From Candidatus Woesearchaeota archaeon (GTDB lineage Archaea > Nanobdellota > Nanobdellia > Pacearchaeales > GW2011-AR1): 64,000 nt of DNA. The DNA lies in the NCBI GenBank assembly GCA_964509675.1, contig CAZDXC010000002.1, positions 71,425-135,424 of the forward strand. Direction: 5' to 3'. The notes under the pieces are model-generated. The model worked only from the letters and a program-made list of their open reading frames with translations. It did not search any database and had not been told where the DNA came from. Every line of letters begins with the position of its first letter. Position 1 is the first letter of the stretch. This document shows, piece after piece, positions 31,118 to 60,099 of this stretch. A program made the position numbers and the translations under genes.

Positions 31118-32524
31118 ATGGAAAGATTATTGGAATTTTTAAAGGATTTTTCTAAAAAAAAGATACTTGTTATTGGGGATGTTATGTTAGATAAGACAAT
31201 TGTGGGGGATGTCTCAAGAATTTCACCTGAAGCCCCTATTCAAATAGTTAATGTAAGAGAAGAATTTTATGAACCAGGGGGGGCAGCAAATACTGCTGCA
31301 AATATTGCTTCTCTTGAAGGAAATGTTTCTTTGTTTGGATTTGTTGGAGAAGATTATAATGCAGAGGTTCTGTTAAAAATATTAAATAAAAAGAAAATCA
31401 GTTGTTTTTTTGATAAAAATCGCATAACCACCCTTAAGGAAAGAATAAGAGGAAGAAACCAACAGCTCTTGAGACTTGATTATGAAGAATCTTCCTTGAA
31501 AAATTTCAGTTTTGAAAATATGAGAAAACTTGAAAAAGAAATGGGACCTACGGATATAATTTTAATATCTGATTATGCAAAAGGAACTGTGACAGGAAAT
31601 TTAATGAATTTTTTGAAATCTTTTGATAAAAAAATTGTAATTGACCCCAAACCACAAAATATGTCTTTATATCGAGATGTTTTTTTAATTACTCCAAACG
31701 AAAAAGAAGCGTTGGAAATCACTTCCCAAAAGAATGTCTATATGGCTGGAAGAATTCTTAAGAAAAAATTTAATTGTAATGTTGTGGTTACAAGGGGGGA
31801 AAATGGAATGACTCTATTTTCAAATAATGAAATTGATATACCCACAACTGTAAGAGAAGTATATGATGTTGCTGGAGCAGGAGATACTGCTATTGCCGCA
31901 CTTTCTTTATCTTTGGCTTCAGGAGCTTCTCTTGAAGAAGCAGTTATTATAGCAAATCATGCAGCAGGTATATCAGTAAGAAAAGTTGGAACTTATCAGG
32001 TTAAATTGAGAGAATTAGAAAATGTGATTTTAGGAGAAGAAAGAAAATTAAAAACTATTGATGAATTATTTGAAATCATAAGAGAATTGAAGAAAAAACA
32101 AAAGAAAATAGTCTGGACAAATGGTTGTTTTGATCTTTTTCATGCAGGACACAAATATTCTCTTGAGCAAGCCAGAAAAAAAGGAGATATTTTAATTGTT
32201 GGTTTAGATTCAGATGAGTCTGTTCGGAAATTGAAGGGTTCTGAAAGACCAATATATAATCAAGAACAAAGAGTAGAGATTTTATCTGGAATGGAGTTTG
32301 TTAATTATATTACAATATTTCCTCCAGAGAAAGCATCAGAATATATTCAACTATTAAAACCAGATGTTTATGTTAAGTCTGGAAATTATACAATAGACTC
32401 AATAAACCAAAAAGAAAGAAAAATTATTGAAGAATATGGAGGAGAGATTTATCTTCCAAGAGGAATTTCAGAACTTTCCACGACGAATATAATAAATAAA
32501 ATAAAAAAACAAAATGGAATTTGA
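31118..32524 (+). CDS. hldE: Bifunctional D-beta-D-heptose 7-phosphate kinase / D-beta-D-heptose 1-phosphate adenylyltransferase
   Basis: N-terminal PfkB-type kinase (GGAANTA...DVAGAGDTAIAAL). C-terminal cytidylyltransferase-like domain (VWTNGCFDLFHAGH). Confidence 0.8.
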   Translation: MERLLEFLKDFSKKKILVIGDVMLDKTIVGDVSRISPEAPIQIVNVREEFYEPGGAANTAANIASLEGNVSLFGFVGEDYNAEVLLKILNKKKISCFFDKNRITTLKERIRGRNQQLLRLDYEESSLKNFSFENMRKLEKEMGPTDIILISDYAKGTVTGNLMNFLKSFDKKIVIDPKPQNMSLYRDVFLITPNEKEALEITSQKNVYMAGRILKKKFNCNVVVTRGENGMTLFSNNEIDIPTTVREVYDVAGAGDTAIAALSLSLASGASLEEAVIIANHAAGISVRKVGTYQVKLRELENVILGEERKLKTIDELFEIIRELKKKQKKIVWTNGCFDLFHAGHKYSLEQARKKGDILIVGLDSDESVRKLKGSERPIYNQEQRVEILSGMEFVNYITIFPPEKASEYIQLLKPDVYVKSGNYTIDSINQKERKIIEEYGGEIYLPRGISELSTTNIINKIKKQNGI

Positions 32525-33530
32525 TAGAAATAAATTAAATATTCTTCCTTTGAATTTTAGGGTAAACAAATCTTCTATAGAACAAATTGTAATAAGTCCT
32601 AATTCAAGATCTTATCCTTCACAAAATTCTAAATTAATTCATAAAATTGCAGAAACTATTCTCTTTGCAAGAAAAAACAACAAGCAGGTTATTTTGGCAT
32701 ATGGTGCCCATTTAATTAAAAATGGATTGGGTTTGGTTTTGAGAAGAATGATTGAAGAAGGTTTTGTTACCCATTTAGCTACTAATGGAGCCGGTTCTAT
32801 TCATGATTGGGAATTTGCATTCCAAGGAGGAACTGAAGAAGATGTTGAGAAATATATTAAAGAAGGGCAATTTGGAATCTGGGAAGAAACAGGACAATAT
32901 ATAAATTTAGCATTAATCTCGGGAGCTGAAAAAGGAATTGGCTATGGAGAATCTGTTTGTGAAATGATTCATAATGAAGAATTAGTAATTCCTGAAAATA
33001 AAAAAATACAAAAAATGAATATAAAGCCAGGAAAAATTGTCATAAAACATCCTTATAAAAAATATTCTGTCCAAGATTCAGCATGGGATAAGATCCCTTT
33101 TACAGTGCATCCTTCTTTTGGTTATGATATAATTTATACTCACCCTTTTAGTGATGGAGCATCAATAGGAAAATGTGCTGAAGTAGATTTTTTAAAATTT
33201 GTTAGCAGCATAAATAAATTGGAAGGCGGCATTTATCTTTCAATAGGTTCTTCAATAATGTCTCCTATGGTATTTGAAAAATCTTTATCTATGGCAAGAA
33301 ATTTGGCAAAACAAGAAAATAGAAAAATTGAAGATTTTACTATTGTTATAAATGATATTCAGAAAGGGGATTGGGATTGGAGTAAAAAGACTGAACCAGA
33401 AAAAAGCAATCCCGCATATTATTTACGTTTTTGCAAAACTTTCCATAGAATGGGTGCAAAAGAAATGTATTATGTAAGGGAAGACAATAGAAATTTTCTT
33501 TTATCTCTTTATCAAAATTTGAAAAAATAA
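32514..33530 (+). CDS. Deoxyhypusine-synthase-like (DHS-fold) protein
   Basis: ILAYGAHLIKNGLG...VTHLATNGAGSIHD aligns with the DHS core LGYTSNLISSGIRE...VTTAGGVEED. THPFSDGASIGK aligns with ALTDGSLGD. IVINDIQ aligns with VYINTAQ. Overlaps the hldE stop by 11 nt and ends 2 nt before gmhB. Confidence 0.45.
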   Translation: MEFDRNKLNILPLNFRVNKSSIEQIVISPNSRSYPSQNSKLIHKIAETILFARKNNKQVILAYGAHLIKNGLGLVLRRMIEEGFVTHLATNGAGSIHDWEFAFQGGTEEDVEKYIKEGQFGIWEETGQYINLALISGAEKGIGYGESVCEMIHNEELVIPENKKIQKMNIKPGKIVIKHPYKKYSVQDSAWDKIPFTVHPSFGYDIIYTHPFSDGASIGKCAEVDFLKFVSSINKLEGGIYLSIGSSIMSPMVFEKSLSMARNLAKQENRKIEDFTIVINDIQKGDWDWSKKTEPEKSNPAYYLRFCKTFHRMGAKEMYYVREDNRNFLLSLYQNLKK

Positions 33531-33531
33531 A

Positions 33532-34062
33532 ATGAAAAATAAAGCTATTTTCTTAGATAGAGATGGAACAATAAATGTTAATAAAGGATACATATATAGA
33601 GTAGGGGATTTAGAGATAATCCCCAAAGTTATAGAAGGATTGAAAATTCTTAGAGAGAATGGATATAAATTAATAATTGTGACTAATCAGTCAAAGATAG
33701 CAAGAGGATATTGTACAAAAGAAGATTACTTTAAATTTAGAGGGGAAATACATAAAAAATTAAGAGAACAGGGCATTATAATAACAGCAGAATATTTTTG
33801 TCCACACCACCCCCTTGATAATTGTAATTGCAGAAAACCAAAAACAGGCATGTTAGAGCGGGCTACAAAGGATTTTAATTTAGATATAAATGAATGCTGG
33901 ATGATAGGAGATAAAGATTCAGATATACTTGCAGGAAAAAATTCAGGATGTAGAACAATTCATGTTCTGACAGGAGAAGAAAAAAAACCCATAGATTATG
34001 CAGATTTTATAGCAAAAGATTTAATTAAAGCAGCAGATTATATCTTAAAACAAAAACAATAA
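33532..34062 (+). CDS. gmhB: D-glycero-D-manno-heptose 1,7-bisphosphate phosphatase (HAD family)
   Basis: AIFLDRDGTIN (HAD motif I). Zinc-binding CPHH...CNCRKPKTGM characteristic of GmhB. Confidence 0.8.
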   Translation: MKNKAIFLDRDGTINVNKGYIYRVGDLEIIPKVIEGLKILRENGYKLIIVTNQSKIARGYCTKEDYFKFRGEIHKKLREQGIIITAEYFCPHHPLDNCNCRKPKTGMLERATKDFNLDINECWMIGDKDSDILAGKNSGCRTIHVLTGEEKKPIDYADFIAKDLIKAADYILKQKQ

Positions 34063-34086: not shown

Positions 34087-35682
34087 GTGGAAGAAGTAAA
34101 AGGAGAATTAAAAGAACCTGAAAAAGAGATAGAAAAGAGAAAAAATTATATAAAGAAAAAACTTTTCTCCTGGATAAAAGATAATTATGATAAAATTTTC
34201 CTTGTTATTCTAATAGTTGCTTTTATTATAAGATTCCTTATTTTTCTTAAAACAATGAACCAGCCTCTTTGGTGGGATGAAGCAGATTATCTTTCAACTG
34301 CAAAAAAATGGGGGCTGGGATTACATATTAAAGATATTTGGTATTATAGAAGGGGATTTTTATGGCCATTAATAGGAGCCGCCTTTTTTGGAATAGGTAT
34401 GGGGGAAGTAGGAATGAGATTTCTTGTAGTTCTTTTATCAACCGGAACTGTGGCTCTTTCTTATTTTATAATTAGAAAAATGTTTGACAAAAAAACTGCC
34501 CTTTTAGTATCTATAGGAATTTTATTTTCTTGGGTTTCTTTATTTTTTACAGGAAGAGTACTGACAGATATTCCTGCAACTTTCTTTCTTTTATTTGCAT
34601 TGTTATTCTTCTGGAAAGGTTATGTCCTTAAAGAAGGAAATAAATTTTTATATCTTTTTGGAGTATTTTTTGCCCTCTCATTATTGACAAGATTTCAATT
34701 TGCAATGTTTGCATTACCTTTTCTTGTTTTTATATTTACAAGAGAAAAATTCAAATTTGTGAAGAATAAACACCTTTGGATAACACTTGGTTTGGCCTTT
34801 GCTGTTCTTCTTCCTTTTTTTGTTTTGTATTGGATGCATTATGGAAATATTGTTACTGATATCTTATCTCATTATTTTGGAGTCTCGGGAGTGTCTTCCA
34901 CTGAACCTGCTCAGAGAACCTTTTCTACAATATTCAATTATTTCAAAGATTTACCTTATATTCTTACTAAATCTATTTTTGTTCTATTTATTATAGGATT
35001 ATTTGTCTTCTTTCAGGATATGTTTCTAGGGATAGATAAAATTTTCAAAAATGAAGAAGTTCAAAAGAAATTTTTTATTTTTCTATGGATTATTGTTCCT
35101 TTCTTAGTTTTAGGATATATAACAGAATATGTAGAACACAGATATATTCTCTCAACTTTGCCTTTTTTATTTTTAGTTTCAATATCTCCATTAATAAAAT
35201 TTGGAGGCTTATTGAGTAGACACTATAAGAAAATTAATAAAAAAACAGCATATATCTTTTCAGCTATTTTATTTTTGTTTTTAATGATAGTAAGTTTTGG
35301 CAGTAGTATCCCTTCAAATTATTCATGGGGGAATAATTTAATAGCAAATAAATTAACTTCTTATTCAGAAGTACAACAGGCTGGATTATGGATGAAAGAG
35401 AATTCTAATACTACAGACATAATAATCTCTCAGTCAAGACCTCAAATAACTTATTATTCTGAAAGAACAACATATGATTTAACTCAAATGGGGCCAGAAT
35501 CTGCATTTCAAGAAAATTTATCGAGAATAAAGCCAAAATATCTTATGTTATCCAAATTTGAACCCCATCAGCAGTGGATGTACTCCTATCCTCAAGAGCA
35601 TAATAGCACTGTAATTCCTGTGAAGGTATATTATCAAAACCAACAGCCTGCTGCAATAATCTATCAATTCAAATATTCTTAA
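34087..35682 (+). CDS. GT-C fold glycosyltransferase (PMT/ArnT-like, GT39/GT83-type)
   Basis: 531 aa polytopic membrane protein with WWDEADY motif in the first extracytoplasmic loop, as in ArnT/PMT-family lipid-linked-sugar transferases. Confidence 0.65.
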   Translation: MEEVKGELKEPEKEIEKRKNYIKKKLFSWIKDNYDKIFLVILIVAFIIRFLIFLKTMNQPLWWDEADYLSTAKKWGLGLHIKDIWYYRRGFLWPLIGAAFFGIGMGEVGMRFLVVLLSTGTVALSYFIIRKMFDKKTALLVSIGILFSWVSLFFTGRVLTDIPATFFLLFALLFFWKGYVLKEGNKFLYLFGVFFALSLLTRFQFAMFALPFLVFIFTREKFKFVKNKHLWITLGLAFAVLLPFFVLYWMHYGNIVTDILSHYFGVSGVSSTEPAQRTFSTIFNYFKDLPYILTKSIFVLFIIGLFVFFQDMFLGIDKIFKNEEVQKKFFIFLWIIVPFLVLGYITEYVEHRYILSTLPFLFLVSISPLIKFGGLLSRHYKKINKKTAYIFSAILFLFLMIVSFGSSIPSNYSWGNNLIANKLTSYSEVQQAGLWMKENSNTTDIIISQSRPQITYYSERTTYDLTQMGPESAFQENLSRIKPKYLMLSKFEPHQQWMYSYPQEHNSTVIPVKVYYQNQQPAAIIYQFKYS

Positions 35683-36193
35683 ATTTAGAAATATAACTCA
35701 CTGTTAAAAAATTAATTTTTTTTAATTGCCTGAACTCTCCCTTTAAAATTTTCAAAATTTCCTTTAAATTAGTAATATGGTCATTAACTCTTTCATTTTT
35801 TCCTAATATTCTTCTTACTTTTCTAGAAATCCAATTTTCCGTCGGAATAGATGTTATGAGCTCAAAATCAGGATTCATTTTTTTAAAGTTATTTATTATT
35901 TTTTTAATTTCTTTTATTGGGATATGTTCAAAAACATCCATCACAAATATTTTATTTGGTTTTAATAGAGTATAATTTTTTATATCGCTATGTTCGGGGG
36001 TTATATCATATCCAATAATTGTATAGCCTTTTTTTTTCAGATTATTTTTCATCCATCCTGCGCCACATCCAAAATCCAAGATAATATCTGTTTTTTTTAA
36101 ATTGGCAATTTTTAAAGCAATTTTTATTTTGCTTCTACTGAAAAATCTTACTAATGGATTTTTGTTTGAATAAGTGGAAGATATGTTATCCAT
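35669..36193 (-). CDS. Class I SAM-dependent methyltransferase
   Basis: ILDFGCGAGW motif I. VFMDVFEHI. Confidence 0.7.
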   Translation of the reverse strand: MDNISSTYSNKNPLVRFFSRSKIKIALKIANLKKTDIILDFGCGAGWMKNNLKKKGYTIIGYDITPEHSDIKNYTLLKPNKIFVMDVFEHIPIKEIKKIINNFKKMNPDFELITSIPTENWISRKVRRILGKNERVNDHITNLKEILKILKGEFRQLKKINFLTVSYISKFKNI

Positions 36194-37197
36194 TATAAGT
36201 ATCCTTTTTCTTTATAATAGTTCACTGTTCTTTTTATTCCTTCTTCCAAGGAAAAAATTGGTCTATAACTTAATTCTTTTTCTGCTTTTGAAATATCACT
36301 ATACCAAAATTTTTCAGTCATCCATTTAATTGTATCATGTTTAAATGGAGGATGAAAGTTTAGTATTTTTCCTAAGAATTCTAGGAGATATCCTCCAGAA
36401 ATAAAAACAAATTTAGGAAATTTTATAAATAAAATTTTTTTATTTTCTGCTTTTTCCATAGCTTTAATTATTTGATTAATGCTGTAATGCTCTCCATTTG
36501 AAATATTGTATTTTCCCCCCACTTTTCCTTTCTTAATTGCTAATAAGCAGGCTTCAATTAAATTTTTAACATATAAAAATTCCATTCCTTTTATATTGCT
36601 TCTTATTGGAAAAAATCTTTTATTTACAGTCAAGAATAATTTCAGCATTTCAAAATCTCTCTCTCCAAAAACCATGGAAGGACGTAGTATAACAATCGGC
36701 ATTTTATATTTATTAAAATATTCCATTGCAATTTTTTCTTGAGCTAATTTGCTCCAACCATATATATCTACTGGCCTGCATTCTGTTTCTTCATTTACAG
36801 GGATTTCATCTCTTGTTGGTCCTACAGCAGAAATACTACTCATTATAATTATCTTTTTTATTTTTTTATTCTTACATGATTCTAAAAGATTTTTTGTTCC
36901 TTCCTCATTTATTTTAAAATATAAATCATTAGGAATAGTCATAGGTCTTGCAATTGCAGCCAAGTGAAAAATCACATCAATATTTTTAACAGCATCTTTC
37001 AATGAGCGTTTATCTAATAAATCTCCTTCAATGATTTCTATATTTAATCTTTTTAATAATTCTAACGAATCTCGCCTTTTTTCAGATCTTTTCTTTTCTT
37101 TTCTGACCAAAACCTTAATTTTATTTTTTTCTTTTGCAAGTCGTTCTACTAAATGACTTCCAATAAGCCCTGTTGCTCCTGTAACAAAAACTTTCAT
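36193..37197 (-). CDS. NAD-dependent epimerase/dehydratase (SDR)
   Basis: MKVFVTGATGLIGSHLVERL Rossmann motif. YGWSK (YxxxK). Start at MKV, giving a 4-nt overlap with the upstream radical SAM gene. Confidence 0.8.
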   Translation of the reverse strand: MKVFVTGATGLIGSHLVERLAKEKNKIKVLVRKEKKRSEKRRDSLELLKRLNIEIIEGDLLDKRSLKDAVKNIDVIFHLAAIARPMTIPNDLYFKINEEGTKNLLESCKNKKIKKIIIMSSISAVGPTRDEIPVNEETECRPVDIYGWSKLAQEKIAMEYFNKYKMPIVILRPSMVFGERDFEMLKLFLTVNKRFFPIRSNIKGMEFLYVKNLIEACLLAIKKGKVGGKYNISNGEHYSINQIIKAMEKAENKKILFIKFPKFVFISGGYLLEFLGKILNFHPPFKHDTIKWMTEKFWYSDISKAEKELSYRPIFSLEEGIKRTVNYYKEKGYL

Positions 37198-38648
37198 GGT
37201 AAAATAGGAGAAAAAATCCAAGCGATATAAGCAGCTATTTTTCTCATAGTTTTATTTTTCACCAACAATTTTGCAAAATTTTCTGTTAAAAAAAATGCAA
37301 GAATTTTTTCTATTTTTGGATAATCTTTTCTTTTTTTTGAATTTTTGCAGCTCCAGACATGTCCCAGTTGAGTCAAAAAAATCATCTCTCTATCAGAATA
37401 ATTTTTGGTATATAAAGGAGCATTTCCTGTTTTTGGATTGATATAATAAAGCCATAAATAATCATTAATCAGGCCTTCCTTTTTAGCAATATCATAAACA
37501 GTAGTTCCTGGGTAAATTGTCAAGGCATTAATTCCTATCCAGTCTGGTTTTGTTTCTCTTATCAATTCAAAAGTTTTCCATGTATCTTCTGCTTCCTCTT
37601 CAAGCGAGCCTACAATTAAAAAGAATTTTAATTCAATTTCTGCCTTTTTAGTCATTTCAGAAGCTTTTTTTATCTTTTCAATTGTAATATTTTTTCCAAT
37701 AGCTCTTAAAACTTTGTCTGAGCCAGATTCAGCGCCATATTCAATTAAATCACACCCTGCTTTTTTCAATATCTTTAGCATTTCTTCATCAACTGTGTCT
37801 ACTCTTGCCTGTATTCTAAATTTAATGGGAAGTTTATTTTTTATTACTAATTCACAAAATTTTATTACCTTCTCTTTTTTCAATGTGAATAAATCATCAG
37901 CAAATCTTATATAATCTATTCCATATTCTTGGTTCAATTCTTTTACTTGCTTAAATAATTTTTCAGCAGAGGTGCTTCTTACCTTTCTTCCCCAAGCAAG
38001 CGTAGTTTCACAAAATTTGCAACCCATAGGACATCCCCTTGAAGTTGTTACAAGTGTTGTTTGTTTTACATTTTTGACATCTGGAGGTAAGGGATATTCT
38101 TTCATAGGGAATAAATCATAAGCAGGAAGAGGAAGATTTTCTATATTTTCCATAAAACATCTTGGAGGATTAATTTTTATTTTTCCTTTTTCCCTAAAAG
38201 ATATTCCTAAAATCTTATTAATTTTTTTTTTATTTTTTATTGCCTTGATCAATTCATACAGAGTCTCTTCCCCTTCCCCCCTAACAACAATGTCAACAAA
38301 ATTGTAATTTTTTAACAGAAGACTATCTAAAAAAGTAGCATGCAATCCTCCAATTATCGTAATAATATCTGAATTTCTTTTTTTTATTTCTTCTAATGTT
38401 TTTAAGGCAGAATATCTATTTTCAGTTAAGCAGCTTACTCCAACTATTTTTGCTCTGGTTCTGATAGATTCACTTGCAGTTTTTTCAAAATTCCATCCTT
38501 TTATTGGAGCATCTATCACTTGAGATGATATTTCTCTCTCTCTTAAATAAGCTGCTAAACAAGCAATTCCCAATGGAACTCCTGACATGGGAAACTTACT
38601 GGTTGTTTTTTTATCTAAGGGGGGGTTAATTAAACAAATATCATTCAT
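37194..38648 (-). CDS. Cobalamin-binding (class B) radical SAM enzyme
   Basis: IIGGLHAT / VRGEGEET B12-like region. TSRGCPMGCKFCET cluster. Confidence 0.8.
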   Translation of the reverse strand: MNDICLINPPLDKKTTSKFPMSGVPLGIACLAAYLREREISSQVIDAPIKGWNFEKTASESIRTRAKIVGVSCLTENRYSALKTLEEIKKRNSDIITIIGGLHATFLDSLLLKNYNFVDIVVRGEGEETLYELIKAIKNKKKINKILGISFREKGKIKINPPRCFMENIENLPLPAYDLFPMKEYPLPPDVKNVKQTTLVTTSRGCPMGCKFCETTLAWGRKVRSTSAEKLFKQVKELNQEYGIDYIRFADDLFTLKKEKVIKFCELVIKNKLPIKFRIQARVDTVDEEMLKILKKAGCDLIEYGAESGSDKVLRAIGKNITIEKIKKASEMTKKAEIELKFFLIVGSLEEEAEDTWKTFELIRETKPDWIGINALTIYPGTTVYDIAKKEGLINDYLWLYYINPKTGNAPLYTKNYSDREMIFLTQLGHVWSCKNSKKRKDYPKIEKILAFFLTENFAKLLVKNKTMRKIAAYIAWIFSPILP

Positions 38649-39739
38649 AGAATCTTTCTAATTTCATTTATTTTTAAAGATTTATTTGCTCTTTTTTTAT
38701 AATTAGTAATAAGAAATCCATTTAATTCTTTGTCATTGGGGTAACCATGCATAGCCTTGAATTTCTCTTTTTGATAAAAATTAGGAAAAAAATATTTTCC
38801 TTTTTCTACATAAAAAATAATTTCTCCGTATCTTTTATCTAAGGGAATTTTATATTTTTTTGCAGTTTTTTTATTCAAAATTTTAAGCTCTTTTATCTTA
38901 GATAATTTTCCTAAAACTTCTTTTTTAGCCTCCTCATTTTTAAACCAAAAGGAAGCAGTAGTTCCTGCGATAAAAAAAAGGTAATCTTTCCTTTTAGGTA
39001 GAATTTTTTCTAAATCTATGTATTCTTTGATATCTGCAAAACCATGATCTCCCCACAAAATAATTCTTGCTCCCCTATTTTCTTTTAAGAATTTTTTTAT
39101 ATATTTCTCTATTATTTTATCTATATTAAACAATGCTTCTTTTGTTTCTATACTTTCTTTTCCAAATTTATGTATAGTTTTATCTACTGACATTAATTGG
39201 GTGTAATAAATTTCTACATTTTTTTCTTTAGTCAATCTTTCAAGTCTCTCTTCATCAGATTCATATTTGAATATTATTCTTCTTTTTTCCTTTTTCTTTT
39301 TTATAACAAAAAATGGCCACTTATAAAAACAGAAATCTTTTTCTTGAAAATAAGGCAATTTCCACAGCCCAAATTTAACACTAGAATCAAAATATTTTAG
39401 TTTTTCTGCTGGAATATTATGCAATGCAGAAATATATGTTCTTTTATTTAAAAGTTGAAAAATTGCTCCAAGGTAAGTTCTTAATTTTTTATTAAAAGAA
39501 AAAAACCTTAATAGAAAATTATTAAATGTAGAATTTTCAGATTTTGAAAATTCCAACCAAATTCCATTTTCTTCCAGAGTGCTTCCTGTGAAAAAACCAT
39601 ATTCAATTCCAGTAAAAGCAAAAAATGTTTCTAAAACACTTAAATTATTTTTAGCCCCGAATTCATACAAAAAAGGAGTATTTTCTTTTGAAATTAAATC
39701 ATATCCTAATCCATCAATGCAGATTATCAATTTTTTCAT
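38645..39739 (-). CDS. Alkaline-phosphatase-superfamily metalloenzyme (type I phosphodiesterase/nucleotide pyrophosphatase or phosphotransferase-like)
   Basis: N-terminal IICIDGLGYDLI (metal-ligand DGL motif of PF01663-like enzymes). C-proximal ILWGDHGF (GDHG metal site). Confidence 0.55.
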   Translation of the reverse strand: MKKLIICIDGLGYDLISKENTPFLYEFGAKNNLSVLETFFAFTGIEYGFFTGSTLEENGIWLEFSKSENSTFNNFLLRFFSFNKKLRTYLGAIFQLLNKRTYISALHNIPAEKLKYFDSSVKFGLWKLPYFQEKDFCFYKWPFFVIKKKKEKRRIIFKYESDEERLERLTKEKNVEIYYTQLMSVDKTIHKFGKESIETKEALFNIDKIIEKYIKKFLKENRGARIILWGDHGFADIKEYIDLEKILPKRKDYLFFIAGTTASFWFKNEEAKKEVLGKLSKIKELKILNKKTAKKYKIPLDKRYGEIIFYVEKGKYFFPNFYQKEKFKAMHGYPNDKELNGFLITNYKKRANKSLKINEIRKIL

Positions 39740-41001
39740 TAAATTTTTTGAAGAAAAAATGCTATATAAGCATTTGCGTAGTCTGTACTTATTTCTTCCC
39801 AGTTCTCTCCTTCCGAGGGATATATTTTACTAAGTAATTCTTTTCCTTTATCTAACATTTTTTTATCTATTCCCGATTCATTTATCGCCCCAATTATGTA
39901 AATTAATGAAGAGAAGATAACAGAATCAGGAGTATATTTTATTGGGTGTTTGGATTTAAAATAGATGCTCATGTCTTTTAATCTTTTATTATATTTTTTA
40001 TTTAATAAAATAATTGCTGCCCATCTGGCTATTGGAATAGAAATAAAATGCAATCCTCTTATCGGAATCATTTTTTTGAGATAAGGATTATAAAATTTTT
40101 TACTCATATCTAATATGGAATAAGATAATTCATCTAAATTTTCTATATTTTTTTTTAGGAATTTGCTAAAAAAATATTTAGAGACTTCCAAAATATTCTT
40201 CCTTGCTATAAACCATTCTTTTTCTATGCTTTTTATAGGTTTATTCGGATTTAGTTTCCATTGTATGAATTGCTCTATTTTTTTATCTAAATTTGGGATT
40301 TTTTTATGAAGTTCTGGGAAATTCTTTTTATATGTTTTTTTTAATATTTCCATTGCCTTTTTATATCCAATTTCATATTTTTTGCTTAATAAGAGAAGGG
40401 AAGTGCAACAGGCAGCATATGCTTGTTGGATTATATAAGTTAGAAATTCTTTTTCATATTTTCCATTAATTGAATAATATTCAACCATTTGACTCATTCT
40501 GTCTAATAAAAGTTTGGCACCTTCTGATAATGGGATTTCTTTTAGAGAGTAATTTGGGATCAAATATCTCAAATCTTTTCCATATAAAATTTTTGATTTA
40601 TTTTTCAATTCATATGTCCTTATCCGCGGAAGCATTTTTTTGAGAGATTGTAGAGAATCCACTTTTAAATCAATGTAAAAATTATTTCTCATTTTTTGCT
40701 CTTCTTTTTTGAAGGGATAAAAATTAGTAATTCCCTTATATCCTAATTTTTCAGAAATTTCTATAGAAATTTTATCTATTTCTTTTTTTGTTAGAATAGT
40801 TCTACTAATAACCTGGATGTCATAATCATTGTATGGAAAAACTTTTTTTCCTTCTATTTTTACAGCCCCCTCTCCTTTTGAGTACCCTCCTGTTAGAATT
40901 ATTGTCTCAATATTTTTTATCCTGTTTAAAATTTCTTTGCAGATAATTTCCATATCTGATATTATCTTACTGTCTCCGATTTCAGAAGTTGTATATTTCA
41001 T
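39739..41001 (-). CDS. Pol-beta-superfamily nucleotidyltransferase with large C-terminal helical domain
   Basis: LTGGYSKGEG...NDYDIQV fits the hG[GS]x9-13[DE]h[DE]h signature. 420 aa. Confidence 0.4.
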   Translation of the reverse strand: MKYTTSEIGDSKIISDMEIICKEILNRIKNIETIILTGGYSKGEGAVKIEGKKVFPYNDYDIQVISRTILTKKEIDKISIEISEKLGYKGITNFYPFKKEEQKMRNNFYIDLKVDSLQSLKKMLPRIRTYELKNKSKILYGKDLRYLIPNYSLKEIPLSEGAKLLLDRMSQMVEYYSINGKYEKEFLTYIIQQAYAACCTSLLLLSKKYEIGYKKAMEILKKTYKKNFPELHKKIPNLDKKIEQFIQWKLNPNKPIKSIEKEWFIARKNILEVSKYFFSKFLKKNIENLDELSYSILDMSKKFYNPYLKKMIPIRGLHFISIPIARWAAIILLNKKYNKRLKDMSIYFKSKHPIKYTPDSVIFSSLIYIIGAINESGIDKKMLDKGKELLSKIYPSEGENWEEISTDYANAYIAFFLQKI

Positions 41002-41945
41002 TTTTCTTTCCTTGAAAATAAAAGCAATATTGCAAATACAGACGGAATTATATTGGAGATAAGAATACCAAGTATGGACATGGAAAATATCTTAACAGCC
41101 CCAATTCCGAACAATCCAAACAGACTTATCATAGTTAACTCCCTCGTTCCAAGCCCACTTATTGTTATTGGGATTTGAGCCACAAGCGTAGATATGGGAA
41201 GTATTGCTAAAAAATAAATAAAGTTTAAATTTACTCCAAGAGATAACCCAATAAAATAAAGAATGCAATAATTAATTGTCCAACTTATTACATTAAAAAT
41301 CAAAACACCAATTAGAAAAAAAGGAGAAGGCATATTTTCATAAAAAGAATAAAAAGTTATTTTTGCTTTCTCTTTCATCTTTTCGGGAATAAATCTTCTA
41401 TATATAAATCTTAAAAAAAATCTGCTTGAATTTTTTCTGTAAAAAACAAAAGAAAACAAGATTAAACTAAAAAATATTGCTATAAGAATATATAATATCT
41501 CTTTTGAAATTATTTCTATTTTGTTGTAAAAAATAAATCCAAAAGTTATTGCTAAAATAAATAATGAACTTAAATCCAAAATTTTGTCTATAACAAAATT
41601 GCTTAACCCTCGTCCAACCCCTCCGCTATATTTGCTTAAATAATCTGCTCTCATCGCACTTCCAATTTTAGCAGGGGTTACAAATCCATAAAAATCTGAT
41701 TTTAGATTTATTTTAAAGGCTTCACCGAATGGGACATCAATTTTTTGTTTTTTTGCTATAATAAACCACTTTGCTGTCTGAAAGATTAAGAAAATAAGAA
41801 CAAAAATTGCTGCAATAAAGAAATAATAAAGATTTATTTTAGTTATTTCTTGAAATATTTTTTTAATGTCTAATCTTATTAGAAGATAAATAAACAATCC
41901 AATACCTATAATCGGGAGGAATTTTCTGACCCTTTTCCATTCCAT
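40998..41945 (-). CDS. UPF0104 / lysylphosphatidylglycerol-synthase-TM-like (flippase-like) membrane protein
   Basis: ~8 TM helices. GFVTPAKIGSAMRADYL conserved loop typical of the LPG_synthase_TM / TIGR00374 family. Confidence 0.5.
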   Translation of the reverse strand: MEWKRVRKFLPIIGIGLFIYLLIRLDIKKIFQEITKINLYYFFIAAIFVLIFLIFQTAKWFIIAKKQKIDVPFGEAFKINLKSDFYGFVTPAKIGSAMRADYLSKYSGGVGRGLSNFVIDKILDLSSLFILAITFGFIFYNKIEIISKEILYILIAIFFSLILFSFVFYRKNSSRFFLRFIYRRFIPEKMKEKAKITFYSFYENMPSPFFLIGVLIFNVISWTINYCILYFIGLSLGVNLNFIYFLAILPISTLVAQIPITISGLGTRELTMISLFGLFGIGAVKIFSMSILGILISNIIPSVFAILLLFSRKEK

Positions 41946-41984
41946 TAAAATTATTGCTTTTCTGCCAATAAAAACCTTTTGATA

Positions 41985-43493
41985 TTATTGTTTAGATAAA
42001 ATTTTCTTCGGTAAAAAATCTCTTAAATGCCCAAAAACAGCCTTTATCCCTCTTAAATTAAATTTGAGATCATTCAAATTTTGTATATTTTTTGTTCTTT
42101 GAATAATATAACTTGGGGTTAAAAATATTGTGTAGATTTTTCCGCAAATATTTGCAATTTCCTTGGCTCTTTCAGAATCAGAGTGAATTTGATCTTTTTC
42201 ATCAGAATTTTTAGTTTTCAAAACAGGTTCCTTCATATCATATCTTTCATATTCTTCAGGAGAAAATAAAAATTCATTTTTCTCTTTTGCTTCTTTCCAT
42301 AAAAGAGTTCCTGGATAAGGAACAAGGACTGTAGCCTGAAGAAGGTCTGCCTTGCCTTTTTGCATTAATTCTTTTGCTAAATTAAAGGTTCTCAGTGCAT
42401 CCTCTTTATTCTCCCAAGGATATCCCACAATCATTGTCAAATGAACAGTTAATCCTGCTTTTTTTGCCATTTCACATCCATTAAGTATATCTTCAACTTT
42501 TATTCCTTTATTCAGTTTGTCTAGTGTTTTCTGATTTGCACTTTCTAATCCAAATTTCAACAATCTAAATCCTGCTTTTTTCATCAAATTGAAATCTTCT
42601 TGTTTTAATGCTCCAAATCTCATGTTACAGGAATATTTTATTTTTTTATTATATCTCCTTTCTATCAGTCCATTGCATAATTCTGTAAGCCAGTTTCCTG
42701 TCATCAACGTTCCAGAATCATCAAAGATTTCTTTTGCATTATATTTGTCAATTAACATTCCTATTTCATCAAGAACATTTTCAACACTCCTGACTCTGAA
42801 TTTTGGAAAAAGGGTCGGCCATGCACAGAATTTGCATTTTCCCCACCAACAATCTCTCCCAGACATTATATAAAAAAATGGTTTCCCTTGTAAGTTATAC
42901 TCTTTTTCATACAATTTCCATTTTGTTAATTCTCTGTCAATAAAAGGAAGTTCATCCAAATTATGTTTCAGGTTAAATTTTCCAGAATTGATTATCTTAT
43001 TATTTTTTCGATAATATATTCCTTCAGGAATTCTTTTTTTATTTCCTGAAAGCCAATCACAAAGAGCAGAAAGACTAAAATCAAAATCTCCCCCTTGCAA
43101 GACAAAATCCACTCTGGAATTTTCAAGACTTTCCTTTGGAAGAAAAGTAACATGGTCCCCCATTATTACTATTTTCATTTCAGGGAATTTCTCTTTTAAT
43201 TTGTCAATAATTCTCCAATGTTGCTTTATTACAGGGGTTTTGGTTTCAAAAGCAAATAATTCTGGTTTTTCATTTTCAATTGTTTTTGTAAATTCTTCCC
43301 ATGAAATATTTTCTGCTATGCAATCCTTCCAAATTACTTCATTTCCATTTTTTTTTAAAAGAGTTGCCGCGCTTCCTAATACGACAGGAAATAAATAAGA
43401 AGGATTTGAAAACCATTGAAATTGCCTGTTTTGGCTTAACAATGCAACTCCTTTCTCTGATTTTAGCGGAGGATATCCTATAAGAATTTTCAT
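41985..43493 (-). CDS. Cobalamin-binding (class B) radical SAM enzyme
   Basis: N-terminal B12-like domain (IVIMGDHVT). SGRDCWWGKCKFCAW Cys cluster. ESANQ and VGYPWE radical SAM core motifs. Confidence 0.75.
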   Translation of the reverse strand: MKILIGYPPLKSEKGVALLSQNRQFQWFSNPSYLFPVVLGSAATLLKKNGNEVIWKDCIAENISWEEFTKTIENEKPELFAFETKTPVIKQHWRIIDKLKEKFPEMKIVIMGDHVTFLPKESLENSRVDFVLQGGDFDFSLSALCDWLSGNKKRIPEGIYYRKNNKIINSGKFNLKHNLDELPFIDRELTKWKLYEKEYNLQGKPFFYIMSGRDCWWGKCKFCAWPTLFPKFRVRSVENVLDEIGMLIDKYNAKEIFDDSGTLMTGNWLTELCNGLIERRYNKKIKYSCNMRFGALKQEDFNLMKKAGFRLLKFGLESANQKTLDKLNKGIKVEDILNGCEMAKKAGLTVHLTMIVGYPWENKEDALRTFNLAKELMQKGKADLLQATVLVPYPGTLLWKEAKEKNEFLFSPEEYERYDMKEPVLKTKNSDEKDQIHSDSERAKEIANICGKIYTIFLTPSYIIQRTKNIQNLNDLKFNLRGIKAVFGHLRDFLPKKILSKQ

Positions 43494-43525: not shown

Positions 43526-44428
43526 TTATCTACCTTTTATATATCCAAAAATCATTCCTGCACCATAACTTATGTGAATTATTGGATAAATAAATGGAAG
43601 AACAAAGAATGCTATGAAATCTTTATTCTTTACAGAATCATAAAAAGAAAAAGAAATTGCAAGAAAAAAATATACAAGAAGGGGGATAAATATTGTTTTT
43701 TTCACATAAAAAATTATTGGCAGAATAATAAGACTTATCAAATAAATTACAAATAAACTTGGAATGAGAAAAAAGGGATTTTTTAATGTATCGCTTAAAT
43801 TTTCTTTTAAAGGACGTGCCTTCCCATAATTGAATATCTGTTTTATCAATCCTCCTACATTTTCTCTTCTTCTATGATATAAAACAATGTTTGGGGTGTA
43901 AGCTACCTTAAATCCCTGTTCTTTAACATCTGCAATAAATTTAGGGTCTTCCCCCGGAAACAGGCTTGGATCAAATTTAACTTTTTCTAAAACTGCTCTT
44001 TTGCATATTAAATTGGCAGAAGTAAGAGCTGTTTCATCAACATTTAAGGCTTCTTTTTTTGAACTATACCTATTTGAGAGTTTCCATGCGCCGAATTTAG
44101 AACCAAGAGCATATCCCGAGATTTTAGCAAAACCCTCTTCGTTTTTTGGAGTTAGCTGGGGGCCGCCGACAACATCAATGTTCGGGTGTTTTTCAAAAAA
44201 TTCCTTTACTTTCTTTAAATAATCGGTCTCTAAGATTGCATCATCATCTAAAAAAATAATAATATCCCCTTTTGCTTTTTCAAATCCCCTATTTCTGTTT
44301 TCAGAGGGGTTTTCACCTTTTTCAACAATAACTTCGTATTGTTTTTTTGGGAAATCCAAATTTTCTATGCTGCCCAATATCTCTGCATCTCTGTAAGGAG
44401 CAACAGGGATTACTAATGAGAATTTCAT
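43526..44428 (-). CDS. GT2 family glycosyltransferase with C-terminal TM anchor
   Basis: FSLVIPVAP...IIIFLDDDA (DxD). C-terminal hydrophobic helices. Confidence 0.75.
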   Translation of the reverse strand: MKFSLVIPVAPYRDAEILGSIENLDFPKKQYEVIVEKGENPSENRNRGFEKAKGDIIIFLDDDAILETDYLKKVKEFFEKHPNIDVVGGPQLTPKNEEGFAKISGYALGSKFGAWKLSNRYSSKKEALNVDETALTSANLICKRAVLEKVKFDPSLFPGEDPKFIADVKEQGFKVAYTPNIVLYHRRRENVGGLIKQIFNYGKARPLKENLSDTLKNPFFLIPSLFVIYLISLIILPIIFYVKKTIFIPLLVYFFLAISFSFYDSVKNKDFIAFFVLPFIYPIIHISYGAGMIFGYIKGR

Positions 44429-44464: not shown

Positions 44465-45244
44465 TTAATCTATCTTTAATTTTTTTGGAAGTTTTCTATA
44501 AGCTCTTACTATGAACCTAAAAGGAGAATGGATGAGCCTTAATCTGACGGATGAAGCAAACATTCTTAGAGGAGTTTTTTTTAAATTGATTTTTGAGCCG
44601 ACTTTGTCATGCCAAACAGTTGGAATTGATTTTATTCTTGCATTGCTTTCTTTTCTTAAACAATATAATAGTGCTATATCAAAACCCCAATTACTCGTTA
44701 CTAATTTTTTAAGATTTTTTTCAATAATGTTTCTTTTGAATAGTTTTGCTCCGCATTGAGTATCTCTAAAGGGAAAAAAGAAAAGAGCTCTGACAATTAG
44801 GTTATATCCTCTGCTCATAAATCTTCTAAGAAAACTCTGCTTCGGAGATATTATGCTTTTTTTGTGCCATCTGTCTGCGATAATTCCGTCATAATTTTTA
44901 ATATTTTTAATTAAATCATAAAAAGATCCTGGAGAAGTAGACATATCCGCATCAACATAACCTATAAATTCATTTTTTCTTTTTAATGCATCCTTAAACC
45001 CCTCAATTATCGCAAAACCCTTTCCTCCCTGTTTAAAGTTTAGGTATTTTATTTCAGGATATTTTTTTGAAATTTCTCTTACAACTTCTTTTGTTTTGTC
45101 TGTTGTGTTGTTTATTACAACTATAATTTCAAAATCTGCTATTTCCTTTTTTTCTTTCTTTTCTGTAAAAAAATCCCCATAACCTTCCAAACTTTTTCCT
45201 ATCCTCTTTTCTTCATTATGAGCAGGAATTATTATTGAAATCAT
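44465..45244 (-). CDS. GT2 family glycosyltransferase (dolichyl-phosphate hexosyltransferase, Dpm1/AglJ-like)
   Basis: MISIIIPAHNEEKRI. YVDADMSTSPG. DTQCGAKLF motifs of Dpm1-like GT2. Confidence 0.75.
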   Translation of the reverse strand: MISIIIPAHNEEKRIGKSLEGYGDFFTEKKEKKEIADFEIIVVINNTTDKTKEVVREISKKYPEIKYLNFKQGGKGFAIIEGFKDALKRKNEFIGYVDADMSTSPGSFYDLIKNIKNYDGIIADRWHKKSIISPKQSFLRRFMSRGYNLIVRALFFFPFRDTQCGAKLFKRNIIEKNLKKLVTSNWGFDIALLYCLRKESNARIKSIPTVWHDKVGSKINLKKTPLRMFASSVRLRLIHSPFRFIVRAYRKLPKKLKID

Positions 45245-45297: not shown

Positions 45298-46314
45298 TTA
45301 AGAGAACATCATAGAAGGAATTTTTAGAATATCTACCTTGAAAATAATAAAACCAATTATTATGATTAAAATCTGAAAGGCATTTATGAGATATACTACT
45401 TCTCTTTCATATGCTTTTTTGCTAGGTTTTATTTTTTTTAATATGCGGATTGCCAAATGTTCTAACCCATAAATTTTATTATAAGGAACTTCCAAACTTC
45501 CATCTTTATTCACTTTGGCAAAACTCTCTTTTTTTAGTCTTCCTTTTAACTTAAGAATTGTTTCAATTATATACGGAATAAAAAAGAAAATTGCAATTTT
45601 TTCAATATTTCCCAAAATTGCAATGATTGCAATAAGCCCCCCAAGGCTGTAAGTCAAAATGTCTCCAGGAAATACCTTTGCGGGATATTTATTGAATATA
45701 TAAAAAGCTGTTAAACATGCTACCATAACCAGTCCAATAATGCTCAACCACCTGTTTCCAATAATATAATTTACTAAAGAGAGGCTTATTAGAATTATTG
45801 CTCCTTGGCTTGCCTCCAATCCATTATATCCTGCTAAAAAATTAAAAGTTGCACTGGCTCCCACAACTCCAAAAACAATTAATATCACAGGATATATTAA
45901 CTCAAGATTTGTTCCTATTATTGTTTGCCCTGCATTTATAACTATTAGTGGAAGTGAGGCAAAGATTAAGAAAATAATTCTAAGAGGTTTGTTGAGTCCT
46001 ATTTTCCATCCAAGAATATCATCTGTAAAGCCAATAAAAGAAATTATTAATATCACACTTAAGAGGGAAAATATTTCCATAATATCATCATAAGATTTAA
46101 AATAAAATGTTTTTACAGCAATATAAGCCAATAGCCCGATAATAAATCCCATAATGACACATATTCCTCCGGCTTCGGCAATTTTTTCGCCACTAGTTTT
46201 ATTTATGTCTTTTCCCGTAAGTCCTACCTTTTTTGCTCTTTTTATCCAAAAGGGCAGGGAAAAAAAAGAAACCAAAAAACCTAAAAAAAGCGGAACTAAT
46301 AGTAAAATTTGCAT
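45298..46314 (-). CDS. aglH: UDP-GlcNAc:dolichyl-phosphate GlcNAc-1-phosphate transferase-like (GPT/MraY family, AglH-like)
   Basis: Polytopic membrane protein with FTDDILGW (DDxxD). NFLAGYNGLEASQG. VFPGDILTYSLG motifs of the MraY/WecA/GPT family. Confidence 0.7.
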   Translation of the reverse strand: MQILLLVPLFLGFLVSFFSLPFWIKRAKKVGLTGKDINKTSGEKIAEAGGICVIMGFIIGLLAYIAVKTFYFKSYDDIMEIFSLLSVILIISFIGFTDDILGWKIGLNKPLRIIFLIFASLPLIVINAGQTIIGTNLELIYPVILIVFGVVGASATFNFLAGYNGLEASQGAIILISLSLVNYIIGNRWLSIIGLVMVACLTAFYIFNKYPAKVFPGDILTYSLGGLIAIIAILGNIEKIAIFFFIPYIIETILKLKGRLKKESFAKVNKDGSLEVPYNKIYGLEHLAIRILKKIKPSKKAYEREVVYLINAFQILIIIIGFIIFKVDILKIPSMMFS

Positions 46315-54254: not shown

Positions 54255-54256
54255 CT

Positions 54257-56856: not shown

Positions 56857-56858
56857 TT

Positions 56859-57239: not shown

Positions 57240-57240
57240 T

Positions 57241-57471: not shown

Positions 57472-57476
57472 TTTGC

Positions 57477-57974: not shown

Positions 57975-57975
57975 C

Positions 57976-59036: not shown

Positions 59037-59037
59037 T

Positions 59038-59786: not shown

Positions 59787-59801
59787 TTTCTGTTTGTTGT
59801 G

Positions 59802-60095: not shown

Positions 60096-60099
60096 TGTT

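Follow-up and report, generated by a model that had tools for sequence, protein, structure and literature searches.

What is made by seven tightly packed genes that bring together two cobalamin (B12)-binding radical S-adenosylmethionine (SAM) enzymes, a membrane protein, a nucleotidyltransferase and an alkaline-phosphatase-fold enzyme? The genes lie at 35669-43493 on the minus strand of a 64,000-nucleotide stretch of contig CAZDXC010000002.1 from a Candidatus Woesearchaeota archaeon (hereafter the window; positions are those of this stretch). In the order of transcription, they encode a 502-aa B12-binding radical SAM protein (rSAM502; 41985-43493; PF04055, 79 bits; PF02310, 33 bits), a 315-aa UPF0104/PF03706 membrane protein of the MprF-flippase type, or PplT (40998-41945; PF03706, 141 bits), a 420-aa nucleotidyltransferase of the pol-beta/aminoglycoside nucleotidyltransferase (ANT) type (NT; 39739-41001; assigned by motif and structure model, with no family profile), a 364-aa bimetallo phosphodiesterase of the nucleotide pyrophosphatase/phosphodiesterase (NPP) type that is predicted to be cytoplasmic (PDE; 38645-39739; PF01663), a second B12-binding radical SAM protein of 484 aa (rSAM484; 37194-38648; PF04055, 86 bits; PF02310, 84 bits), an epimerase/dehydratase/reductase of the short-chain dehydrogenase/reductase type (SDR; 36193-37197; PF01370, 143 bits) and a small, 174-aa class I SAM methyltransferase (MT; 35669-36193; PF13489, Methyltransf_23, 38.6 bits). 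Domain calls are from Pfam and NCBIfam profile searches, with gathering or equivalog scores as cut-offs, and they agree with all seven assignments made in a preliminary description of the sequence, that of NT by way of motif and model. The description proposed a self-contained pathway that transfers a phospho-linked, radically modified head group to a membrane lipid or lipid-linked glycan. We favor a different answer, which as a whole we hold to be plausible though short of probable: the seven genes serve tailoring and export within a surface-glycan operon of a DPANN archaeon (Pace-/Woesearchaeota type), at the head of which is the oligosaccharyltransferase gene AglB, and NT and then PDE tailor a lipid-linked sugar. 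The general frame of this explanation is likely, and we hold it with good confidence.

Open reading frame (ORF) calls place the seven co-directional genes and their overlaps where they had been described. A 39-nt spacer separates rSAM502 from UPF0104 (41945/41985) and is followed by 4-nt overlaps at 40998-41001, 38645-38648 and 37194-37197, and by 1-nt overlaps at 39739 and 36193. The SDR ORF as called spans 36193-37221; judging from the sequence, translation most likely begins at the ATG at 37197, where start codon and rSAM484 stop overlap as ATGA, and yields a protein of ∼334 aa.

Coupling of NT and PDE across Phyla

One genome per species was scanned with NT patterns, yielding 80 loci chosen by NT similarity alone, and hidden Markov models of NT and PDE were built for this analysis. 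At 75 of 81 loci with an NT homolog, a PF01663-type homolog on the same strand lies no more than 2.6 kb away, usually directly next to NT, and both gene orders occur (NT precedes PDE in 42 pairs and follows it in 33). Loci are from DPANN archaea, bacteria of the candidate phyla radiation (CPR; WWE3 and Saccharibacteria), Iainarchaeota, Bathy- and Helarchaeota, Nitrososphaeraceae and Thermoplasmatota, as well as Chloroflexota, Planctomycetota, Acidobacteriota, Myxococcota, Verrucomicrobiota, Armatimonadota and others, about a dozen phyla overall. The reverse test, starting from a distant PDE homolog, recovers an NT homolog (E 1e-39) that overlaps the start of PDE.

The two proteins are also fused. 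At seven loci, NT and PDE are in a single reading frame, and a PDE-NT fusion used as a query retrieves 97 protein clusters of ∼730-830 aa, of which 94 hold both domains, always with PDE first. Database names of these clusters are only "alkaline phosphatase family protein" or hypothetical. Other fusions join NT to UPF0104 (P0085, 723 aa, with the PF03706 domain first and the enzyme second; locus L002), to a family 2 glycosyltransferase (GT2) in a myxobacterial metagenome-assembled genome (MAG; L076) and, as a methyltransferase-PDE-NT triple fusion, to both other enzymes (P0420, 1055 aa; L085, 7293-10460). Adjacency across phyla and repeated fusion together provide strong sequence evidence for joint action of NT and PDE in the vicinity of a glycosyltransferase, a flippase and a methyltransferase, as the proposal of functional partnership between NT and the alkaline-phosphatase-fold enzyme had anticipated.

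Within the recurrent gene set, only the NT-PDE pair is universal. A methyltransferase as an obligatory third member was considered and rejected, as only 28 of 81 loci have one within 5 kb. Single-linkage clustering of neighborhood ORFs was uninformative, with fusions merging the NT, PDE and glycosyltransferase families, and revealed no universal third partner.

Folds and Catalytic Residues of NT and PDE

The window NT has no match in Pfam (PF01909 included) or NCBIfam at E ≤ 0.01, in PADLOC or in a sequence search of the PDB. The NT parts of diverse homologs are likewise without a match in Pfam (eight proteins, E ≤ 0.05) or NCBIfam (six, E ≤ 0.01): in Pfam, six stand-alone bacterial, CPR and archaeal NTs are blank and two fusions match solely via their PF01663 or GT2 part. 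The NCBI naming models (NCBIfam) do not cover the family. A profile built for it matches 2746 cluster representatives (50% identity), among 1.84 billion, at E ≤ 1e-3, 1765 at 1e-10 and 335 at 1e-30, and a database search with the window NT found 113 close homologs (41-72% identity), all from DPANN-type sources. An alignment of 43 NTs shows no variation at G38, G45, N58, D59, D61, D111 or R168. Across 82 wider homologs, D59 is 99% conserved, D61 is D or E in 81 of the 82, and D111 is 82% conserved. NT carries the G..G/DxD/D signature of pol-beta nucleotidyltransferases and, by this retained motif, looks active.

The predicted structure of NT (predicted local distance difference test score, pLDDT, of 94) is that of an aminoglycoside-ANT-like nucleotidyltransferase, in which an MNT-like nucleotidyltransferase domain is followed by a HEPN-like helical domain and an extra C-terminal helical domain. 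The model has the AadA/ANT-type order of a nucleotidyltransferase alpha/beta fold and then a helical substrate-binding domain. Motif and model thus bear out the initial call of a pol-beta nucleotidyltransferase with a large helical domain and refine it to an ANT-like two-domain enzyme with an extra helical domain. The enzymes ANT(3'')(9)/AadA, AAD(9) and ANT(4') put a nucleoside monophosphate (NMP) on a sugar or cyclitol hydroxyl. NT shares with these the pol-beta/MNT nucleotidyltransferase and helical (HEPN-like) domains and the G..G/DxD/D signature but has only 8-17% identity to them, no PF01909 match and an extra helical domain of ∼160 aa; nor is it a resistance gene, as it is found in glycan clusters with an obligatory phosphodiesterase partner. 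Structure comparison places its fold nearest to O-adenylyltransferases that act on sugar or cyclitol hydroxyls. On the strength of the model, NT looks like an O-nucleotidylyltransferase acting on hydroxyls and not like a LicC-type small-molecule "activating" enzyme, the role it had been given earlier.

The architecture of NT also bears on a more skeptical explanation, in which the genes share no pathway and are independent tailoring genes in dense islands of related genomes, or in which the NT-PDE pair is a mobile HEPN/MNT-like toxin-antitoxin or defense cassette. The island that contains the genes is large and mosaic, and NT does have an MNT plus HEPN-like architecture. However, the NT-PDE linkage extends across domains of life, in both gene orders and in four kinds of fusion. 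Neither NT, PDE nor UPF0104 has a match in PADLOC, there is no His 4-6 residues after R168, hence no Rx4-6H RNase motif of HEPN proteins, and neighbors are glycosyltransferases and flippases, not defense genes. We therefore regard this explanation as very improbable.

PDE matches PF01663 at 74.1 bits (gathering score 23) across profile positions 2-341 of 342 and has a DGL motif (D9) and a GDHG motif (D231-H232). The six NPP metal ligands (D9, D186, H190, D231, H232 and H331) are 96-100% conserved in 77 homologs and invariant within the DPANN clade, in which T43, the expected nucleophile, is ≥90% conserved. With six ligands retained, PDE also appears catalytically competent. A PDB sequence search gave marginal ENPP matches only. 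In comparisons made with a predicted PDE structure, the best scores are to ENPP6 (27.9), ENPP4 (27.7), Xac NPP (26.9) and ENPP7 (26.8), and other branches of the alkaline phosphatase superfamily score lower: PhnA 22, independent phosphoglycerate mutase (iPGM) 15.6, LtaP 15.3, MCR-1 14.7 and phosphopentomutase 14.4, with the LtaS/EptA/MCR-1/GacH group at 13.8-15.3. The alkaline-phosphatase-fold call holds. An iPGM-type phosphoglycerate mutase, named at the outset as the identity that would overturn it, is ruled out by fold (15.6 vs. 27.9 for ENPP6), and the protein falls outside PF01676/iPGM.

Because PDE has no hydrophobic segment and its chain begins directly at the first metal-binding strand, it should be cytoplasmic; a signal peptide is also absent. 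Nor is PDE of the membrane-anchored phosphotransferase type. Relative to the NPPs that it resembles in PF01663 membership, six metal ligands and a candidate nucleophile Thr (ENPP6, ENPP4, Xanthomonas NPP and ENPP7), PDE is predicted to be cytoplasmic, is 13-19% identical and is paired or fused with a nucleotidyltransferase, and some of its relatives lack a clearly conserved nucleophile.

These folds help to weigh two other uses for such a pair. One is nucleotide-sugar supply, with the alkaline-phosphatase-fold enzyme as a phosphosugar mutase (iPGM- or phosphopentomutase-like) and NT as an unusual sugar-1-phosphate nucleotidylyltransferase, together producing a dedicated nucleoside diphosphate (NDP)-sugar for glycosyltransferases. 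Mutase and pyrophosphorylase pairs are common in glycan clusters, the pair does sit among glycosyltransferases, bacterial PDE homologs have faint apgM/phosphopentomutase matches (E ∼0.004) and some fusions are annotated with PF01676. Both folds nevertheless disfavor it: the nearest structures to NT transfer NMP to hydroxyls and not to phosphates, and the fusions of NT with a flippase domain and with GT2 point to a lipid- or glycan-bound substrate, making this use unlikely. The other is head-group salvage, in which an ENPP6-like PDE cuts the head group from a glycerophosphodiester or (host) phospholipid, NT makes an NDP-alcohol and a further transferase attaches it. The top structural match, ENPP6, is a choline-specific glycerophosphodiesterase, DPANN and CPR cells depend on host lipids, and PDE is first in the fusions. 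However, salvage would require one more enzyme, a phospho-alcohol transferase, and the search among neighbors revealed no universal partner of this kind; the NT fold matches hydroxyl-acting ANTs, and the pair is equally common in free-living phyla. We consider salvage an improbable use of the pair.

An AglB-Headed Operon and Its Relatives

The seven genes are not self-contained, as had been supposed, but are the 3′ part of a 12-gene run (AglB-GT4-GT2-GT2-...-MTase) within a ∼47-kb glycan island. The co-directional run extends upstream to 50032 and takes in five more genes (two for GT2 enzymes, one of the GT4 family, AglB and one that is SpoIIM-like); from AglB through to rSAM502 (41985-43493), no gap exceeds 53 nt. 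Next to rSAM502 is a membrane-anchored GT2 (GT2_300, 300 aa; 43526-44428, minus strand; PF13641/PF00535) with C-terminal hydrophobic helices and three hydrophobic peaks (maximum Kyte-Doolittle value of 2.71 at residue 221). Its best NCBIfam match is MftF-like, as it is for the GT2 part of the GT2-NT fusion in L076, and this GT2 is a candidate for loading the sugar that would undergo tailoring. Further upstream on the minus strand are a soluble GT2 that lacks a transmembrane (TM) segment (GT2_259, 259 aa; 44465-45244; PF00535, 77 bits), a Glycos_transf_4 protein, which is an AglH/WecA/MraY-type polyprenyl-phosphate sugar-1-phosphate transferase (338 aa; 45298-46314; PF00953, 98 bits), AglB/STT3 near the head of the run (934 aa; 46316-49120; PF02516 STT3 plus PF21436) and, upstream of AglB on the same strand, the SpoIIM-like gene (49172-50032). 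At the other end, a PMT_2 glycosyltransferase of the GT-C type (531 aa; 34087-35682; PF13231 plus PF02366) is convergent on the plus strand and has ten hydrophobic peaks and at least ten TM segments. By hydrophobicity, NT, PDE, both radical SAM proteins, SDR, MT and GT2_259 are soluble, and UPF0104, GT2_300 and PMT_2 are membrane proteins.

Synteny of the arrangement in 16 related DPANN contigs shows the gene set to be a real recurrent combination, more than chance would produce. PDE and a B12-binding radical SAM gene are present in all 16, PMT_2 in 13 (each time in the same convergent position), rSAM502 in 12, rSAM484 in 11 (usually followed by SDR), SDR in 11, the Glycos_transf_4 gene in ten and UPF0104 in ten plus one fused copy. 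The general DPANN layout is AglB-GT4-(UPF0104)-GT2-GT2-rSAM-NT-PDE-rSAM-SDR-MT with convergent PMT_2 GT-C, and AglB retains its position in L002, L005, L011, L014 and L017. In L002, MT sits between NT and PDE. Two CPR bacteria have most of the set as well, in a WWE3 locus (MT-MT-x-SDR-NT-PDE-UPF0104, with a convergent SPASM radical SAM gene) and in a Saccharibacteria locus (L020; GT2-UPF0104-rSAM(SPASM)-SDR-MT-PDE-NT-B12 rSAM-x-GT9). Conservation of the neighborhood, which had been named as one of the checks to make, is thus borne out.

Outside the Pacearchaeota/Woesearchaeota group, we took a census of the genes that flank the pair, two per side (30 loci, 116 proteins). Among these neighbors are 23 GT2, 19 GT1/GT4-type and seven Wzx-type proteins, five SDRs, five methyltransferases and three radical SAM proteins. 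In Chloroflexia, the pair is within a Wzy/Wzx/glycosyltransferase cluster. The preponderance of glycosyltransferases and flippases, together with the UPF0104-NT and GT2-NT fusions, fits the membrane-lipid or lipid-linked-glycan context that had been suggested. A literature search for glycan systems that combine NT with an alkaline-phosphatase-fold enzyme yielded no description, in line with the initial statement that the arrangement is not a described system, and the search found no description of a DPANN radical SAM glycan cluster.

Two loci illustrate other settings of the pair. In L083 (815-6335), genes for an unannotated 286-aa protein, an ABC_tran ATPase and a methyltransferase, as well as three GT2 genes, come right after NT-PDE. 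Polysaccharide loci that depend on an ABC transporter, and in which chain length is controlled by terminal capping, are laid out in this way. In L085, the triple fusion P0420 is directly downstream of flagellar genes (FlgA/H/I/N/K, flagellin, FliW and CsrA) and upstream of GT2, a methyltransferase with tetratricopeptide repeats (TPR) and a 2117-aa multi-glycosyltransferase protein, and the locus looks like a flagellin glycosylation island.

The window UPF0104 protein scores far above cut-offs for its family (PF03706, 140.7 vs. 33.4; TIGR00374, 101.9 vs. 43.2) and has nine hydrophobic peaks, corresponding to ∼8-9 TM segments. Among PF03706 proteins, lipid translocation is shown experimentally for MprF only and is predicted for others (PMC5898192; bioRxiv 10.1101/2022.03.11.483950), and a PF03706 protein partners a glycosyltransferase and a tailoring enzyme in gpgSDF (PMC12713373). 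As in MprF and GpgSDF, the gene of a PF03706 protein here accompanies, or is fused to, that of a cytoplasmic enzyme that would modify a lipid-linked head group before flipping, and P0085 has the domain order of MprF, with the flippase domain first and the enzyme second. In contrast, the partner in the window is a nucleotidyltransferase and not an aminoacyl-phosphatidylglycerol synthase or a glycosyltransferase/deacetylase, and UPF0104 is below the equivalog scores for the glucosaminyl-phosphatidylglycerol flippase (35 vs. 320) and MprF (22 vs. 600).

In archaea, a UPF0104 neighborhood (arCOG00899) with an AglD-like GT2 and a PMT/STT3-like GT-C has been described (Makarova et al. 2015; PMC5898192). 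The window encodes this three-component set of GT2, flippase and GT-C together, in two GT2 genes, UPF0104 and PMT_2, and PMT_2 is likely an extracytoplasmic transferase that uses the flipped lipid-linked sugar. The same grouping of GT2, UPF0104 and PMT/STT3-like GT-C underlies the likeness to AglD/AglR/AglS, ArnC-ArnD-ArnE/F-ArnT and GtrA/B/V. Within the Arn system, ArnD is a precedent for tailoring a carrier-linked sugar before flipping. Unlike these systems, the window encodes far more tailoring enzymes (NT, PDE, two B12-binding radical SAM proteins, SDR and MT) and its GT2s are below the ArnC or AglJ equivalog score, with weak matches only (25-30 bits) to AglJ, ArnC or AglG models.

A Proposed Pathway

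From the gene set, folds, catalytic residues, NT-PDE coupling and glycan context, we infer substrates, an order of NT then PDE and a final chemical group. The upstream GT4-family and GT2 enzymes would load a sugar onto dolichyl phosphate or a dolichol-linked oligosaccharide, and soluble enzymes would modify the sugar at the cytoplasmic face while it is lipid-linked. The UPF0104-NT and GT2-NT fusions and the split into soluble and membrane proteins are among the reasons for proposing a lipid-linked substrate and flipping. NT would move NMP from a nucleoside triphosphate to a sugar hydroxyl, forming a sugar-O-P-O-nucleoside phosphodiester, which PDE would then process, most likely by removing the nucleoside and leaving the phosphate, or by exchanging the nucleoside for another alcohol. 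A methyl group may next be added by MT, to the phosphate or to the sugar. The two B12-binding radical SAM proteins and SDR would make carbon-level edits, for which methylation, HpnJ-like ring contraction and AprD4/AprD3-like deoxygenation are candidates. UPF0104 would flip the finished lipid-linked unit, and PMT_2 GT-C or AglB would transfer it to a surface protein, glycan or lipid.

Our confidence in the specific phosphate model of NT then PDE, which draws on modeled folds, is low, and we offer it tentatively. Generalized, it would make the NT-PDE pair, often with a methyltransferase, an unrecognized route to a phosphate-type group on lipid-linked glycans that uses neither a kinase nor a CDP-alcohol donor, with phosphate, methyl-phosphate or phosphodiester-bridged products, and one that would serve archaeal N-glycans, bacterial O-antigen or exopolysaccharide (EPS) and flagellin glycans; this we put forward as a possibility, and a somewhat doubtful one.

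Two known systems offer functional parallels. Tagging with mannose-6-phosphate, a eukaryotic, luminal process, employs a GlcNAc-1-phosphotransferase (GlcNAc, N-acetylglucosamine) and an uncovering enzyme. There, as proposed for NT and PDE, a phosphodiester is written on a sugar hydroxyl and the phosphate is then uncovered, but the folds are unrelated, the process is eukaryotic and luminal, and the covering group is GlcNAc instead of a nucleoside. The second is WbdD of Escherichia coli O9a, a kinase plus methyltransferase that caps polyprenol-linked O-polysaccharide with methyl phosphate at the cytoplasmic face (PMC3482155). It joins a phosphate-installing activity to a SAM methyltransferase, to which the methyltransferase-PDE-NT fusion and the L083 locus may be compared. 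The analogy, proposed here, is functional; the kinase fold is absent from the window set, and phosphate would come by way of a nucleotidyl intermediate.

Several points weigh against the proposed pathway. Transfer of NMP followed by removal of the nucleoside is a costly way to phosphorylate, and the default NPP reaction releases NMP, which would undo the NT step. Across the wide PDE family, the nucleophile position is T or S in only about half of the proteins, in a part of the alignment that is uncertain. PDEs of Thermoplasmatota (L055-L062, L065 and L067-L069) keep six ligands and read GFAQRT at the nucleophile position, which means that the nucleophile has shifted or that the alignment is locally wrong. 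No GT2 in the window reaches the NCBIfam equivalog score for a polyprenyl-phosphate sugar synthase. Methyltransferases are patchy (28 of 81 loci within 5 kb, as noted), UPF0104 is confined to DPANN and CPR loci and radical SAM genes are rare beside the pair elsewhere; therefore, the seven genes need not share one substrate. Synteny among the close DPANN loci may also come in part from shared ancestry.

That NPPs normally release NMP from nucleotide diesters, and that MNT-type nucleotidyltransferases AMPylate proteins, could alternatively mean that the modification is reversible. NT would write and PDE would erase an NMP mark on a glycan, carrier lipid or assembly protein as a means of control, for example of chain length or flipping. 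However, no regulatory domains are seen, and opposing activities in one chain, in a fixed order, in 94 clusters and in a biosynthetic context fit sequential steps better. We judge such a switch to be unlikely, if worth keeping in view. Because NT and PDE are fused in a fixed order within biosynthetic clusters, we favor sequential steps that would leave a phosphate-type group.

Radical SAM Enzymes and SDR

Both radical SAM proteins of the operon have an N-terminal B12-binding domain and a radical SAM core with a three-Cys motif. The motif is CPMGCKFC (CxxxCxxC) in rSAM484 and CWWGKCKFC, a Cx4Cx2C variant of the cluster motif, in rSAM502. The best NCBIfam family for rSAM502 is TIGR03471 (HpnJ), at 178 bits, which is 44 bits above the next family and compares to a cut-off of 578. 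For rSAM484, the nearest NCBIfam families are ApyD and BchE, and the closest solved structure is AprD4 (PDB 6fd2; E 1e-26), a non-methylating diol dehydratase, whose equivalog (NF033070) is not reached (113 bits, cut-off 500). C-alkylation, the reaction earlier proposed for both proteins, is one candidate chemistry among several. Nor are such enzymes general partners of NT-PDE, as only three of the 116 neighbors outside DPANN are radical SAM proteins.

Hpn enzymes offer a precedent for the grouping, with B12-domain radical SAM proteins that act on (lipid-linked) sugars beside a GT2, a PF03706 protein and an SDR; chemistry of HpnI/K/J and Cds has been reviewed (PMC13459092). Likewise, rSAM484 is followed by SDR, as AprD4 works with AprD3. 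In contrast to Hpn and Apr, window scores are far below family cut-offs, hopanoid and aminoglycoside genes are absent and reactions are not predictable so far off.

The Hpn likeness raises the prospect of an hpnI/K/J/L-type cyclitol head group, for which GT2 would glycosylate a lipid, an HpnJ-like radical SAM enzyme would contract the ring to a carbocycle (compare the bacteriohopanetetrol (BHT) cyclitol ether and calditol), UPF0104 would export the product, and NT and PDE would add a phosphate-type group. HpnJ and HpnA are the best NCBIfam matches of rSAM502 and SDR, HpnL and HpnB are among the matches of UPF0104 and GT2_259, and a polysaccharide deacetylase is beside radical SAM and UPF0104 genes in L001. 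However, all scores are far below equivalog cut-offs (170 bits vs. 368 for the HpnA-like match of SDR, 27 vs. 196 for HpnL, 26 vs. 379 for HpnB), and Pfam and NCBIfam scans found no hopanoid genes in the window. Similarity of B12-binding radical SAM proteins at such a level does not predict the reaction, and AglB, the GT4-type initiating enzyme and GT-C point to protein or glycan targets and not to bulk lipids. A cyclitol head group is therefore quite unlikely.

Significance of the NT-PDE Module

Glycan islands, PF03706 flippases, B12-binding radical SAM proteins and the NPP and ANT folds are already known kinds. What is new is the NT family itself, its near-obligatory coupling to an NPP-type enzyme predicted to be cytoplasmic, and the wide distribution of the module, which is found in N-glycan, Wzx/Wzy, ABC-type and flagellin glycosylation loci. 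A sizeable family that has no Pfam or NCBIfam profile is tied to an NPP-type phosphodiesterase in glycan clusters of about a dozen phyla. Surface glycans govern host attachment of ultra-small DPANN and CPR cells and phage, immune and biofilm behavior in bacteria. If phosphate-type groups are indeed made by way of a nucleotidyl intermediate, this would be a new glycan decoration route and a new physiological role for ANT-like and NPP-like folds. Housekeeping enzymes of this sort, which modify sugars, may be the source of ANT-type resistance enzymes. The PDE-NT and methyltransferase-PDE-NT fusions of ordinary bacteria are an experimental handle that makes uncultured DPANN archaea unnecessary.

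The Surrounding Island

The window has a G+C content of ∼29%, and the closest homologs of its proteins are from MAGs of Pace-, Woese- and Nanoarchaeota. Its gene content is archaeal, as in addition to AglB/STT3 it encodes a Sec61-type SecY with a plug domain and IF-2B; tRNA and Rfam scans of the window gave no match. The glycan island (2.9-50 kb) contains a Wzx flippase, an aminotransferase, a thiamine pyrophosphate (TPP) enzyme, a deacetylase, several glycosyltransferases, an NTP_transferase-GT1 fusion and an ADP-heptose-like gene set.

For an archaeon with a small genome, radical SAM genes are unusually dense in this island, with nine in ∼47 kb (five B12-binding, two SPASM and two plain). 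Those outside the operon are all on the plus strand (10466-11938, 12996-14042, 14044-14892, 18905-20326, 21672-22808, 22805-23794 and 25792-27330). rSAM502 and rSAM484 belong to this broader radical SAM habit of the genome. Three genes are in a row on the plus strand, encoding the aminotransferase (7470-8645), a three-domain acetolactate-synthase-like TPP enzyme (8691-10457) and a B12-binding radical SAM protein (10466-11938), adjoining the Wzx flippase (4004-5545) and an SDR (2936-3886). The row may serve branched-chain or amino-sugar chemistry.

The ADP-heptose-like set, on the plus strand, consists of a GT9-NUDIX fusion, a PfkB-cytidylyltransferase-like fusion (HldE-like) and a haloacid dehalogenase (HAD) phosphatase (GmhB-like), at 29663-31057, 31118-32524 and 33532-34062. 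A GT9 gene is also near the NT-PDE pair in L020 of Saccharibacteria. On the plus strand at 32514-33530 is a gene for a 338-aa protein with a weak ArgZ-like Rossmann match only, homologs of which (114-123 bits) occur ∼10 kb from NT-PDE pairs in Eisenbacteria MAGs (L063, L066 and L082) and in DPANN locus L003. The NTP_transferase-GT1 fusion (23791-25695, minus strand; 634 aa) joins a sugar-1-phosphate NTP_transferase to a GT1/GT4-type glycosyltransferase. Two island proteins, of 392 aa (5542-6720) and 356 aa (11865-12935), both on the plus strand, are without a Pfam match. Downstream of SecY, a long run of short co-directional ORFs on the minus strand (53462-63641), with strongly negative AT and GC skew, is probably a ribosomal protein operon.

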